From an uncultured Nitrososphaerales archaeon (lineage in GTDB: Archaea > Thermoproteota > Nitrososphaeria > Nitrososphaerales > Nitrososphaeraceae): a stretch of 64,000 nucleotides of DNA. Of this stretch, positions 7,969-12,601 are shown piece after piece. A program made the position numbers and the translations under genes. The stretch spans positions 480,001 through 544,000 of the forward strand of contig CAVOHZ010000008.1 in the NCBI GenBank assembly GCA_963695855.1, given 5' to 3'. Position 1 is the first letter of the stretch. Every line of letters begins with the position of its first letter. A model generated the notes under the pieces. That model was not told the origin of the DNA. It did no database searches and worked only from the letters and a program-made list of their open reading frames with translations.

Positions 7969-9250
7969 ATATTATTGCAGAAACATCATTTTTTTCTCTA
8001 TCTCTAAAAGCTTGTTGTTTACAATTATTATTTTTATCTGCTTGAACACATATACATGGCTTTATTGGGATACCATCATCAAGTCTCCATACTTTAAAGC
8101 CCAATGCTGATCCAAGAGAAATGTAGCTACTAATTGTAAATCCAAGAATTGAGTATATGATTTGTTTTAGATTTTCTAATATCACTGACAATAGTATTAT
8201 ATATTGATGAATATAAAGCTCTCCTTCAAAAAACTAATCAATTGAAAAGTAATAGCTTCTAAAACCTTACACATTTTAATTACTATATATAGAATAAGAA
8301 ATAGGCTTGTCAAATGTTAAGCAAGTCTTTCAGACTCCTATAATAATATAGATTGTAATAAGTGTTTGGTTAATGTCTCTATCTATACCAAAGAGAATAT
8401 TTATTATCATATCAGTTAATTCAGTAATATCATACATTAGAAAATTTGGTGCTGTTAAGTTAATTTCTCTTTCTTTAATAAAATGAATTTTATTTCTGAA
8501 TTATAGAAATATAAAATAATCTATTCCAATTGTATACATGTCATAGATCACAATTTTATTTATTGTTATTGTTAATACCTGGATAATAATCATCAAAACA
8601 TTCGGTATTTTTTAGGAAAAATACAGGCTTGAGGATGATGTTATGTTCTACCATCTCTATACATAGTACATGTTTTCCATATTTGTCAGCTAATGATCTA
8701 ATGAATTTTTCAGCAATAGGCATGTTTCTCTCCTCTGATATATAGATTCCAAGCACAGAACTATACTGGTCCTATACAAAACTATAACCAGAAATGCTAG
8801 GTACCAATTTGAATAATGGTTTCATCTATTATTAAATGCTTATACTTTTTTTCTTTTGTGAATATGACATGAACCAAATCTCTGGATCCAATTCCAAACA
8901 GAAACATAACTTCTTTTCTTATCTCTAAAGATAACGAATGTTTTAGACGTATTTCTAAAACTTAAACCAAGAAAATACAAATACAAAGAATACGTAACAG
9001 GAAAAGTAGACGTTCTATTTCTTTCAAATTTAATTTTCATATAATAGATAGGATATTCTTAGCTATAGCGTTGACTGGTAAACTTAACATCCATGAAAAT
9101 ATACCTGTATGCTGATTATCTTTTCTATCCTGTTTAGCCTCATTTTGTTATATCTTTCTATCTATCAAACATTGTCGACAATAGCCTCCGCTATATGTGG
9201 CATCGTTGTTCTCTCAAGTCATCGTATTGTTATTGTCTAACGAATTATCT

Positions 9251-10333
9251 TTATTGAGATCCAATCTTCTTCAGATTTTCCAGTTTCTGTTCATATCTAC
9301 TCCTGTTTATGTTTCTATATAATTGGTGTCTTGTTAGCATGTACCATATTATAACAAGCATCTCCTTTGCTGTTGCAACTATTGCTTTGCCGTGTCCTTT
9401 TCTTTGTTTTATTCTTTCATAGAATATTCTCATGTGATGGTCATGTCTTATTGCAGATAATGAACACTGTACTAGCATTCATCTCAGCAAAGGAGAACCT
9501 TGTTTTGTTATTCTACCTGTTTTTATTTTTCCGGATGATTCTCTTGTTGATGGTGATAATCCTGCATAACGAACAAGTTTACATGGTGTAGAGAATCTAT
9601 TGATATCCCTATTTCTGTTGATATCAGCATGGCAGAAAAAATGTCTATTCCTGTTATACTGACAAGTATCTTTATATCTTGACTGTCTTGCCAGGCATAT
9701 GTTGCTATCTCTTTTAATACTATTTCTATCTGGTTATCTATTGATTCTATTGATTCTATTGATGCTAGTGTTGTATTCAGTATTATTTTGTCTATCGGTG
9801 AAACTGAGAGTGATTTTAGCCAGTTAACTCCAGATTTTCCAAATATGTCTGTCAGTTCTGTTCTGTATTCATACTTGTCCAAAATAGCATGAATCTTGTT
9901 TGCTAATTTTGTTTATGTTCTAGACAAGACTATTCTATGTCTGACCAGACTCCTTTTTTCCCTAAATTCCTTTACAGGTACATATTACTCGCATACCAAT
10001 CAATCCAGTTCTCAGCAGATCAGATAATATACGTGCATCAAGTTTATCTGATTTTATCTTTGCTTGTGCTATTATCTTTGTCTTGTATGGATTTGCTAGT
10101 ACTGTATCTATTCCATTATCTTCTAACGTATCATGTATTCTCATCCACATGTTTCCTGTAGATTCCAGTACTGCATTACATTTTTTTGTTCTATGATTAT
10201 GTATCCTTTTAATCAATTCTAATATTCCCTGATAACCGTTACCAAAGAAGAATTCATTCAGTATCCTTCCCCTATCATCTTTTAGAGCTGCCATGCACTT
10301 TCTCTTTCCAACATCTATTCCAAGATGATTCAA
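9251..10333 (-). pseudogene. IS110 DEDD recombinase, split by frameshifts into three fragments
   Basis: GIDVGK, VLESTG and KSDKLDARILS (RuvC-like DEDD). C-terminal Tnp domain GIDIFSAMLISTEIG ... ESSGK ... KAIVATAKEML. Confidence 0.9.
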
Positions 10334-10360
10334 TTTTTTTCATTCACGATTTTTTTTATT

Positions 10361-10490
10361 TGTTGGCTAACAACAGGCGGCAAACATCCATACACTCTCT
10401 AAGAGTACTATGATAGCCACTTTAGATAAATAAGGTTCAGTCAGAGCCTCACTCTCCTCCGCAGTATGTTAAGTTTGAACCTAGCCAACA
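10361..10490 (-). ncRNA. Putative IS110 bridge RNA (target-binding and donor-binding loops)
   Basis: Outer stem UGUUGGCUA/UAGCCAACA. Loop 1 is closed by AGGUUCA/UGAACCU and carries AACUUAACA and AGGCUCUG(AC). Loop 2 is closed by GUGGC/GCCGC and carries AUGGAUG(UU). These segments match the element's target and donor junctions. True 5'/3' ends unknown. Confidence 0.8.
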
Positions 10491-10779
10491 TACAACAATG
10501 GTATAACCCAGAAGATTTTCATATCGTCAGAGCCTAGGAAAGAGTAAGAATACTTATATTAATTGGTATAAAAGTAATAATCGGCACGATAATAAATGAT
10601 TTAACATTTCTATTTGGAAGGGGACATCTAACACGTTTTTTAGTGAACCAAAATTAAAGATTTATTTTAATTCTGAAACCGATATAATTTCAAAAGAAGA
10701 TAAAAAATGTAGTTTACAGTTTGATAGTAAAACTACTGATAGTAATGGAAAATAAAATAATTAAAATCTATGTCTAGAT

Positions 10780-10983
10780 TTGATTCCTGATGGTTTTATT
10801 TCATTTTTTATTTTTTGGATTATGGCAATACTACTTTTCTCTATCAAATCAATTTCAAAAAAAGAAGATAAAATTAAGTGTATAAAAAATACAAAATGTA
10901 ATTTTTGTAGTAGCAAGATGGATGTTAAATTACATTGTAACAATGCTGATTGTAGGGCTTTTTCTCATAAACCTCCTTCTTAA
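10780..10983 (+). CDS. Small membrane-anchored Cys-rich protein
   Basis: Hydrophobic N-terminal helix followed by CNFC and CNNADC. TTG start uncertain. Confidence 0.4.
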   Translation: MIPDGFISFFIFWIMAILLFSIKSISKKEDKIKCIKNTKCNFCSSKMDVKLHCNNADCRAFSHKPPS

Positions 10984-11083
10984 CTTATCCGACGACTTTT
11001 GACAGCGTTAGAAAACTGATTAAGAGTTTACAGAAGTAAGTATAATATGCTTTATATTTTAGTATGTCGACAGTACTTAGTAT

Positions 11084-12601
11084 ATGCAATTAGCTCAAAC
11101 AGATTTAGATCTAAGCAAGAAATGCATGGAGATAGTGAATGAAATAGAACAATCGAATATAAAATGGGTTCGATTGAATTTTTGCGATCCTTTTGGTTTT
11201 TTACAACAAATAAGTGTCCAAAGTGAAGAGATAACAGAAGATGCGTTTAAAAACGGTATTCCTAGGCTAGATGGAAGTTCGATAAGAGGGTTCAGAGAGA
11301 TTCAGGAATCTGATATGCTGCTAAAGCCAGATCCAACTACTTTTGCTGTTTTACCAAATTATTTTGATAAAGATCATCACAATTATAATAACACTTACAG
11401 ATCAACAGCTGCCCGTATGTTTGTGGATATATATGAGGGCTTTAAGGGTACCCGTTACACTCGAGATCCTAGATTTATTGCACAGAAAGCTGCTCAAGTT
11501 GCAAAGGATAAAGGTTTTGAAAACAGCTATTGGGGTCCAGAATTGGAATTTTTTGTATTCAACAATATAAGACTGTTGCCAAATGCCATGTCAGCAGTTA
11601 ATTGCTCAGGAGGTACTGGATATTCTATTGAATCTACTGAGGCTCCGTGGGGGAATGGTAATGAAGGTGCAGCAGGATACACAATTCCTTTCAGAAGTGG
11701 GTATTTTCCAGCGCCACCTGCAGATAGTTTGACGGACTTTAGGGATGAAGTATCCGACATGCTACGCCAATATTTTGGAATCACGGTTGAAGCCCATCAT
11801 CATGAGGTAGCTACGGCGGGACAATGTGAAATACAAATGTCGTTTGCTAGTCTTGTTTCTATGGCTGATCAGGTAGTCACATACAAGAAAACAGTAAAGG
11901 AAACTGCTGCAAAACGTGGAATGGTAGCAAATTTTATGCCAAAACCGGTTGCACTAGATAACGGATCTGGAATGCATGTTAGCCAGAGTCTGTGGGGAAA
12001 GAAAAAAAATGATGAAGTAAATTTGTTTTATGATCCTGCTGATGAATATGCAGAGTTGAGTCAAACTGCATTTTACTATATAGGAGGGCTGATAGAACAT
12101 GCTGAGGCACTATGTGCCATTACTAATCCGACAACGAATTCTTATAGAAGGTTAGTGCCAGGATTCGAGGCTCCAATAAATGTTGCATGGAGCAAGATGA
12201 ACAGGTCAGCAAGTATAAGGATTCCTGCTCACTTTAGAAAAATGGAAAAAAGAAAGAGGATAGAGTTAAGAACACCAGATCCTAGTTCCAATATCTATCT
12301 TGTTGAGGCTGCATTGTTACTTGCAGGTCTGGATGGAATCAACAAAAAATCTTCAGTTCCAGAACCAGTAGATGCAGATATCTACAAGCTATCCGAAGAG
12401 AAAAAAACAGAATATGGAATTAAAAAATTGCCAACATCTTTGCAGGATGCCATAGAATCGTTAGAGAGTGATATGGAATTTCTAAAGCCGGCATTTACAA
12501 GTGATTTTCTAGAAATGTATTGTGATATTAAAAAAGATGAACATGTACAAGTTGCATCGATTCCATCGCCAAGAGAATTCTATATGTATGGTAACGTCTG
12601 A
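11084..12601 (+). CDS. glnA: Glutamine synthetase type I
   Basis: DGSSI, GPELEFF, HHEVATAGQCEI, PKPVALDNGSGMH, SYRRLVPGFEAP, NRSASIRIP, IELRTPDP. Confidence 0.96.
   Translation: MQLAQTDLDLSKKCMEIVNEIEQSNIKWVRLNFCDPFGFLQQISVQSEEITEDAFKNGIPRLDGSSIRGFREIQESDMLLKPDPTTFAVLPNYFDKDHHNYNNTYRSTAARMFVDIYEGFKGTRYTRDPRFIAQKAAQVAKDKGFENSYWGPELEFFVFNNIRLLPNAMSAVNCSGGTGYSIESTEAPWGNGNEGAAGYTIPFRSGYFPAPPADSLTDFRDEVSDMLRQYFGITVEAHHHEVATAGQCEIQMSFASLVSMADQVVTYKKTVKETAAKRGMVANFMPKPVALDNGSGMHVSQSLWGKKKNDEVNLFYDPADEYAELSQTAFYYIGGLIEHAEALCAITNPTTNSYRRLVPGFEAPINVAWSKMNRSASIRIPAHFRKMEKRKRIELRTPDPSSNIYLVEAALLLAGLDGINKKSSVPEPVDADIYKLSEEKKTEYGIKKLPTSLQDAIESLESDMEFLKPAFTSDFLEMYCDIKKDEHVQVASIPSPREFYMYGNV

Follow-up and report, generated by a model that had tools for sequence, protein, structure and literature searches.

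A probable RNA-guided IS110/IS1111-family element with a putative bridge RNA matching the terminal inverted repeats of IS6-type elements in a Nitrososphaeraceae archaeon

How does one insertion sequence come to lie exactly within the terminal inverted repeat (TIR) of another, and is the choice of that site encoded in an RNA of the inserted element? This question is raised by a locus of an uncultured Nitrososphaerales archaeon, an ammonia oxidiser from soil (assembly GCA_963695855.1; 3.55 Mb in 11 contigs, about 31% G+C), located in a 64,000-nt stretch of contig CAVOHZ010000008.1 (positions 480,001 to 544,000, forward strand) that is referred to as the window in the following. Here, a degenerate element, copy A1, interrupts the right TIR of a decayed IS6 copy. 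A first-pass annotation had read it as an archaeal IS110 element with a CA core and a dead recombinase, whose bridge RNA is programmed against the IS6 TIR, i.e., as a transposon-on-transposon parasite. Site-specific copies, guide covariation and intact paralogs support such a bridge-RNA element. That is, A1 is very probably a dead copy of an RNA-guided insertion sequence with a DEDD recombinase from the IS110/IS1111 family, hosted by a Nitrososphaeraceae archaeon. Same-genus relatives that were retrieved with the recombinase are labelled Nitrososphaeraceae or Nitrososphaerales archaeon, in line with the proposed archaeal origin, and more distant ones are labelled Candidatus Nitrosocosmicus. 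The SSU model RF01959 yields 1490.8 bits, but bacterial controls trigger this model as well. Directly supported are the anatomy, the site specificity, the fold with its compensatory changes, the guide covariation and the conservation of catalytic residues.

Removing positions 9090-10529 restores AACTTAACAGAGCC on the + strand (reverse complement GGCTCTGTTAAGTT), which is the right TIR of the host IS6 and agrees with its left TIR in 12/14 positions, as had been proposed. The + strand junctions read AACTTAA-CA|TCCATG (9081-9095) and ATATCGT-CA|GAGCC (10521-10534), such that the insertion point is GGCTC|TG|TTAAGTT in element orientation and the annotated CA core is a TG when read along the element. 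All coordinates of the first-pass annotation, including those of every RNA motif, turned out to be correct. The element carries 10-bp subterminal inverted repeats, one spanning its nt 8-17 and one placed just before its last 5 nt. Its minus strand encodes a 196-nt non-coding end, an N-terminal open reading frame (ORF) fragment and further recombinase pieces.

The genome contains five full-length copies (A1-A5), two of them with an intact 356-aa DEDD/Ser recombinase. Using a profile of the non-coding end, we also identified seven complete shorter copies (B1-B7; 320-357 bp) plus several remnants. The short copies show the same ends and the whole RNA region without the recombinase, lie at the same type of site and are called minis in the following. 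A1 is 86-87% identical to three of the other full-length copies and matches the fifth, A5, in two pieces (86% and 90%). On the RNA side, 5/5 full-length and 7/7 mini copies are flanked by GGCTC-like|TG, and on the other side by TG|TTAAKTT-like sequences. TG is found at both junctions in 12/12 complete copies and once at uninterrupted paralogous sites; beyond this shared core no duplication is observed. Since the uninterrupted sites read GGCTCTGTTAAGTT and run on downstream just as the A3 flank does, the insertion is precise. In total, all 12 copies sit at the same target type and none at an unrelated site.

Next to the question of the site stands that of the RNA. Upstream of the recombinase gene, a region of about 165 nt on the gene's strand encodes the putative bridge (seek) RNA, which lies within 208 nt of the gene; the roughly 165 nt downstream of the gene show no similarity to it. 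The guide matches that had been claimed for A1 (9/9 and 8/8 to the target, 7/7 to the donor, and a partial 5/9 donor match) are all borne out. When the 196-nt non-coding end was shuffled 200,000 times, the 9-mer arose at a frequency of 0.0013, the 8-mer at 0.0014, and no shuffle (0) contained both.

In the consensus fold, an outer stem (GGCUA with UAGCC) encloses two internal-loop hairpins. The first, or target, hairpin is formed by GGUUCA with UGAACC plus an inner stem, and the second, or donor, hairpin by G[U/C]GGC with GCC[A/G]C, again plus an inner stem. This fold was tested on 16 and then on 26 distinct sequences. For the latter, 93.7% of the cells are paired, compared to 28-42% after shifting the partners by 1-3 columns. 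Furthermore, 7/27 pairs are changed on both sides, and 0/500 shuffles reach the covariation score; related sequences can exceed shuffles, such that the stronger part of this evidence lies in the shifted-partner controls and in the seven pairs with changes on both sides.

Whether the guides change along with their targets was assessed on copies from this genome, from same-genus genomes and from named records, with guide columns taken from the alignment. The resulting 35 copies stem from Nitrososphaeraceae genomes and one metagenome-assembled genome (MAG) titled Bathyarchaeia. Two copies with mutated 5' ends (G010c, L084) were removed ahead of counting, the alignment does not include B7 and C1x, and the right ends of L076 and L067, not located with confidence, were set aside. 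For the 5 nt before the core, left-target guide and flank match in 167/175 cells (perfectly in 29/35 copies), whereas shuffled assignments yield 116.8 cells on average and 0/20,000 shuffles reach 167. When identical pairs are collapsed, 63/70 cells match versus a shuffled mean of 40.0. The right-target guide matches in 167/196 cells from 28 copies, 14 of them perfect (shuffled mean 143.3; 0/20,000). Nine different guide pentamers occur, each in copies whose flank is identical, namely GGCTC, GGTCC, GGTGC, GGCTG, GGCCC, AGTTG, AGTTC, GTTAA and GGGTT. That is, guides follow flanks among homologs, and the guide RNA appears to have been re-programmed naturally along the variants of the IS6-type end.

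The donor loop behaves accordingly with respect to the element's own ends. On its 3' side, right ends CATAGA|TG, CATGGA|TG and CACGGG|TG occur with AUAGAUG, AUGGAUG and ACGGGUG, respectively, and the 5' side covaries with left-end nt 5-8 (GATA/UAUC, GACA/UGUC, TATA/UAUA, AGGA/UCCU). In IS621, two handshake nucleotides follow the 3' guides (PMC11208160, PMC11208158). The nucleotides after the 3' guides studied here are candidates for the same role: among 29 copies with a flank, UU is found with TT in 21 and UA with TA in 6, and 2 are discordant. The UA group is a single clade, so the UU/UA change counts as about one event. For the target-loop handshake AC no informative variation is available.

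Could the guides instead be IS6-repeat debris captured by recombination, with the protein alone picking the site? All copies reside in one repeat family, a repeat-reading protein would produce the same distribution, and guides could simply hitch-hike. Nevertheless, we consider this explanation highly improbable, given that the two halves are split, inverted and placed on opposite sides of a conserved internal loop. Moreover, the guides follow the flank in nine variants, including some with 4/5 (GTTAA|TG, AGTTG|TG) or 2/5 (GGGTT|TG) positions changed, the second loop tracks the element's own ends, and the stems show compensatory changes.

Two groups of relatives extend the range of guides. A sister clade from Nitrososphaeraceae MAG records (L062, L070, L077, L078, L079, L067; 62-75% aa identity) carries the guides AGUUGUG or AGUUCUG plus UGUAAAC, and its site reads ..GTTAACAGTT[G/C]|TG|TAAA...; L079 and L067 have it 12 nt deeper within a GGCTCTGTTAAC-like end. 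The sister clade may thus have been retargeted to another register or to another IS6 subfamily. The MAG titled Bathyarchaeia contains a copy at 59% aa identity (L069:1319-2730) with matched guides, i.e., GGGTT|TG with GGGUUUG and CACGGG|TG with ACGGGUG. Its presence there could reflect a transfer between phyla or a binning error.

Regarding the recombinase, the pieces of A1 lie in two frames with in-frame stops, such that it is dead, as annotated. Its N-terminal fragment is the sole one that scores in Pfam (PF01548 DEDD_Tnp_IS110, 65.7 bits); for two other recombinase fragments the search gave no match, nor did it for the window's own IS6 fragments, and intact paralogs were therefore examined in their stead. 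The intact A3 protein (356 aa) matches PF01548 with 77.3 bits, PF02371 (Transposase_20) with 79.3 bits and the NCBIfam model NF033542 'IS110 family RNA-guided transposase' with 223.3 bits (cut-off 140). In a phmmer alignment with IS621 (8wt6), its residues D7, E57, D96, D99 and S262 align to positions read as the catalytic Asp/Glu/Asp/Asp and Ser241, where the 8wt6 positions were obtained by counting with a 2-residue offset. We take the IS621 numbering of the first, second and fourth of these acidic residues to be D11, E60 and D105. For D102 and S241 of IS621, a catalytic role is described (PMC11208160, PMC11208158). Matches of A3 in the PDB, namely IS621 (E 4e-9) and ISCro4, are both near E 1e-9 and do not discriminate between subgroups. 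The nearest plasmid matches are haloarchaeal (about 40% identity), and their label 'IS110 family transposase' is informative at family level only. The genome encodes six other IS110-family recombinases (36-44% aa identity; Table 1); none of these genes has this clade's RNA profile alongside, and they presumably use other RNAs and targets.

Guide-flank agreement might also be found in a fossil family, i.e., it could be due to descent from old insertions with nothing mobile today. The window copy, A2 (one frameshift) and A5 (interrupted by about 1.04 kb of inserted DNA with other ORFs) are indeed broken, and the circle junction was not seen in the contigs examined. On the other hand, the open 356-aa frames of A3 and A4, the intact copies found in this genome, are 99% identical at different loci, the minis B1-B4 are 98-100% identical at four loci, and related genomes hold copies at other loci and with other guide variants, which makes a fossil family quite improbable. 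The insert of A5 contains two ORFs of about 170 aa that resemble another transposase.

Table 1. Positions of the element, its host and related features. Plain numbers are window positions; C3, C6, C8 and C10 denote contigs of the genome. Strand is given relative to the window.
Feature	Position	Strand	Description
IS110/IS1111-family element, copy A1	9090..10529	-	1440 bp including one core copy; degenerate
IS6 right TIR, inner part plus one core copy	9081..9089	+	AACTTAA-CA; in element orientation TG-TTAAGTT, the right target
IS6 right TIR, outer 5 bp	10530..10534	+	GAGCC; in element orientation GGCTC, the left target
Right-end subterminal inverted repeat	9093..9102	-	AUAUUUUCAU in A1, AGATTTTCAT in other copies; pairs with ATGAAAATCT
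Left-end subterminal inverted repeat	10513..10522	-	ATGAAAATCT
Recombinase pseudogene	9251..10333	-	N-terminal fragment 9962-10333 keeps the DEDD domain; rest in two frames with stops
Bridge RNA core (putative)	10365..10486	-	
Target-loop stem in A1	10476-10481 with 10434-10439	-	GGUUCA with UGAACC
Target loop, 5' guide	10467..10475	-	AACUUAACA; complementary to TG-TTAAGTT on the element-sense strand, 9/9
Target loop, 3' side	10440..10449	-	AGGCUCUG (10442-10449) identical to left flank plus core, 8/8
AC in target loop	10440-10441	-	Identical to element nt 3-4; candidate handshake
Donor loop, 5' side	10408..10416	-	CUAUCAUAG; 5/9 to donor, scored by eye
UAUC in donor loop	10412-10415	-	Complementary to GATA, element nt 5-8
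Donor loop, 3' side	10383..10391	-	AUGGAUG (10385-10391) identical to right end plus core, 7/7
UU in donor loop	10383-10384	-	Equals nt 1-2 of the right target; candidate handshake
Left TIR of host IS6 remnant	8448..8461	+	GGTGCTGTTAAGTT
Decayed IS6 body	8448..9089	-	Transposase fragments at 8556-8756 and 8840-9040
Full-length copy A5	C10:166436-168913		
Minis, loci L020-L026	C10:1746112-1746451, C8:113675-114014, C10:1354506-1354844, C10:1407616-1407950, C8:187904-188223, C3:37349-37671, C3:465563-465919		
Decayed RNA-region remnants	C8:431303-431500, C10:1007353-1007810, C10:489060-489150, C10:497588-497673		First one: guide GGUUCUG beside flank GGTTC, adjoining an IS6 coding locus
MITE-like pairs of IS6 repeats (examples)	C6:171917-172035, C10:899666-899784, C10:1227642-1227760		About 115-118 bp apart
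Other IS110-family recombinase genes	C10:287645-288700, C10:289954-291009, C10:140732-141742, C10:267178-268188, C10:1598725-1599735, C8:370371-371102		36-44% aa identity
Predicted circle junction, full-length copies			CATGGA-TG-ACGATATG (right end/left end)
Predicted circle junction, minis			CATAGA-TG-ACTATATG (right end/left end)

Based on this anatomy, we propose the following course of events. The 5' side of the target loop would pair with TG-TTAAGTT and its 3' side would carry GGCTC-TG, such that both halves together would represent the 14-bp outer end of IS6-type TIRs, split at the TG core. Likewise, the 3' side of the donor loop would carry the right end plus core, and its 5' side would pair with left-end nt 5-8. 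The complex of recombinase and RNA would then join the circularised element (predicted junctions in Table 1) to the target at the core, duplicating only the shared core, and the multi-copy repeat, present in IS6 copies and in miniature transposable elements with inverted repeats (MITEs), would serve as landing pad. Transcription, the circular intermediate, catalysis and harm to IS6 are what we infer here from comparison of sequences.

Public RNA libraries provide some additional information. Six runs contained 12-29% of the element's words. We compared contigs of three RNA runs and one DNA run, which tell neither strand nor ends and hence count neither as support nor as evidence of absence. 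They span the RNA region and, in part, the gene. The circle junction was found in none of them, which is no evidence of its absence. Two joints turned up in all: the DNA run has a mini-like skip of 1332 nt, and the other joint is an odd 445-nt back-joint. A 166-letter RNA-library contig contains nt 84-218 of A3 (L003:1584-1718) as an exact 135-nt insert between adapter-like flanks, which proves neither a strand nor a defined small RNA.

Several observations weigh against an RNA-guided element as described. In the 5 nt left of the core, one mismatch or more is present in 6/35 copies: G012 (GGCUG as guide, GGCTC as flank), G017 (GGCUG, GGTGC), B1 (GGCUC, GGCCC), L075 (GGCGC, GGCAC) as well as A4 and L071 (both with flank AGCTC). 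In the 7 nt right of the core this holds for 14/28 copies; right-side mismatches are seen in B2, B4, G022, G010c, A5, L065 and L072 and further in L063, L071, L070, L077, L062, L078 and L079. The right-target guide of the Bathyarchaeia copy L069 matches its flank in 1/9 positions only, and the donor 5' guide pairs over no more than 4-5 nt. Since the copies are related, the shuffles overstate their independence. An Rfam 15 scan of 8000-11200 gave 0 matches at E<=1, and the RNA-library contigs (3 studies) that cover parts of an intact copy are strandless, with DNA possibly present in the libraries. Finally, A1 itself cannot act.

What, then, is the landing pad? The first-pass annotation had named the host as IS6 and the ends of IS6 copies as landing pads. 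Concerning the host, an intact paralog with a 219-aa ORF matches the Pfam family PF13610 DDE_Tnp_IS240 with 32.1 bits (cut-off 27), and it reaches 97.7 bits for NCBIfam NF033587 transpos_IS6, which is under the respective cut-off of 125. A tblastn search with this transposase hits C8:488514-489040, i.e., window 8514-9040. The intact paralogs thus combine an IS6/IS240-type DDE transposase with a short element and GGCTCTGTTAAGTT-like, GG-initial ends, and the host is indeed IS6. Without the insert, it measures 647 bp compared to 726-733 bp for fuller paralogs.

The genome harbors 74 IS6-like coding loci and 97 sites with at most 2 mismatches to the 14-mer, many of which form pairs about 115 bp apart, i.e., MITEs (examples in Table 1). 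For one repeat family, this is a very high load in a 3.5-Mb archaeal genome. The 13 insertion sites divide into 3 next to IS6 coding sequence, 5 with a partner repeat at a distance of 98-116 bp, as in the MITEs of about 115 bp, and 5 without a partner TIR within 1.5 kb. Therefore, the target is the repeat itself, wherever it is present. That is, the shared TIR and not IS6 as such is the landing pad: all copies lie in the IS6-type repeat, and the annotation has to be qualified in that many of these sites belong to a MITE or lack a partner. It is plausible that the insert disables an IS6 end because only 5 bp of the repeat remain outside of it; the host IS6 in the window is itself decayed.

The RNA-carrying minis are the least expected part of this system. 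In the bridge-RNA and IS110 literature on non-autonomous elements or MITEs, we found no description of such forms, and in a 2026 preprint about non-coding clusters neither 'orphan' nor 'standalone' occurs. With B1 as query, complete minis of 316-340 bp are found in the same-genus genomes G010, G012, G017, G018, G022 and G023 and more divergent ones in G014 and G019, such that at least 8 same-genus genomes contain similar minis; matches to B1 at E<=1e-10 are present in 15/25 genomes of the genus, where full-length copies also match through the RNA region. Downstream of mini-type left ends, a recombinase ORF was found at 0/13 loci in relatives and at 0/7 in this genome, and the 3' half of the minis is unlike the full-length element except at the very end. 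When right ends are compared by reading with the donor guide, 13/16 complete minis agree at the varying position: AUAGAUG accompanies the end CATAGA|TG, and AUGGAUG is found in most minis with CATGGA|TG. Moreover, minis differ by a compensatory change within the donor hairpin's inner stem (CUACCUC/GAAGGUG versus CUGCCUC/GAAGGCG), which argues that the RNA is still under selection in them.

Given these observations, we lean slightly towards minis being RNA-bearing satellites that provide their own guide and ends and borrow the recombinase protein in trans. This would amount to a three-tier parasitism of mini on IS110-family element on IS6 or MITE. Many minis have a donor loop that fits their own ends, and these ends are unlike the ones found in the autonomous element; target guides would drift among the IS6-repeat variants in an arms-race-like manner. 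If true, minis are natural minimal donor-plus-guide cassettes, and they suggest that RNA and ends alone can persist as a mobile unit.

To place the element among known ones, we compared it with the two subgroups of its family. Membership in the IS110/IS1111 family itself is indicated by both recombinase domains, the catalytic residues, the core at both junctions and the covarying two-loop RNA. The 10-bp subterminal repeats are within the 7-17 bp described for IS1111 (PMC11208160). The top-strand match is located 5' of the bottom-strand match, i.e., the 5' guide forms the complement of the sense strand, to which the 3' guide is identical, and this order is reversed between IS1111 and IS110 types (PMC11187229). 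The non-coding region of IS1111 types is usually long and downstream of the gene, with ISMtsp17 (upstream) and ISHvo10 (long regions on both sides) as rare exceptions (PMC11187229), whereas the RNA is upstream here. Compared with the IS110 subgroup, the guide order is reversed relative to the RNA direction and the core is TG/CA. Judged by these features, the annotated label 'IS110' holds at the level of the family, with subterminal repeats and guide order being IS1111-like.

A plain IS621-like element of the IS110 group, for which the reversed guide order results from the choice of the 'top' strand, seems rather unlikely to us, although it would explain why the RNA is upstream and on the strand of the gene, as in that group (PMC11208160). 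Furthermore, the IS621 layout is obtained if the window's + strand is taken as top: the 5' side then equals the left half plus core, and the 3' side, which two handshake-like nucleotides follow, complements core plus right half. However, it is obtained only if top is the strand opposite to RNA and gene; the sense strand is the pairing partner of the 5' side, an order of the IS1111 and not of the IS110 type (PMC11187229), the repeats ATGAAAATCT/AGATTTTCAT have an IS1111-like length, and the core, TG (CA on the + strand), differs from CT, whose second-place T is nearly invariant. We thus retain an IS110/IS1111-family element with IS1111-like features.

Bridge or seek RNAs have been known since 2024 (PMC11208160, PMC11208158, PMC11187229). 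With IS621, the element shares the DEDD and Ser recombinase domains, the RNA upstream of the gene with target and donor internal loops, 14-nt sites, a 2-nt core within the guides, a split and weak right-donor guide and handshake-fitting nucleotides. It differs from IS621, whose core is CT (PMC11208160, PMC11208158), in its reversed guide order, TG/CA core, 10-bp subterminal repeats, single outer stem over both hairpins, distant protein (E 4e-9) and archaeal host. In subterminal repeats, match order and insertion without duplication, it resembles the IS1111 seekRNA elements (ISEc11 and others; PMC11187229), whose RNA, unlike here, is usually downstream. This mixed layout, i.e., IS1111-type polarity and repeats along with an upstream RNA, bears on the movement of RNAs between element ends. 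With this element, bridge/seek-RNA transposition, whose mechanism was elucidated in bacteria, very probably extends to archaea that oxidise ammonia.

The idea of TIR targeting stands for the archaeal IS6 case, but its principle is already known from bacteria: IS110-family elements reside in the repeats of other transposons, namely IS4321/IS5075 in those of the Tn21 family and IS1383 in those of IS1384 (titles cited in PMC11208160). As here, their specific target is the TIR of another transposable element; their hosts, however, are bacterial and their target families others. ISEc21 targets another insertion sequence as well, inserting in IS3-family transposase genes, and its relative ISMch6 is a natural guide redirection matched by a changed flank (PMC11187229). 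There, the target is inside a gene and one redirection is described, whereas nine guide-matched target variants are found here, which makes for clean comparative evidence and a natural series of re-programmed guides on one scaffold. IS1111 inserts in QMITE2 of Coxiella burnetii (PMC5896051), likewise a multi-copy MITE as landing site, but with a GTAG palindrome inside the MITE as target and not the end of a repeat; the excerpt of PMC5896051 contains no RNA analysis.

Concerning the minis, the ssr9 modules of ISPpu9 are similarly short and recombinase-less with element ends; these end-box-flanked modules occur alone and can form circles (PMC12288879). Unlike the minis, which keep the bridge RNA, they encode Ssr9, which is not a bridge RNA and is dispensable for transposition. 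For annotation, the system described here accounts for split IS6 ends and for many short 'orphan' structured RNAs in Nitrososphaeraceae. The orthologue lists supplementing PMC11208160 and PMC11187229 may already include this clade. Given the earlier bridge RNAs, the known targeting of TIRs, IS3 elements and MITEs, and ISMch6, the new part is therefore the archaeal case with a new target family, and an unusually well-documented one.

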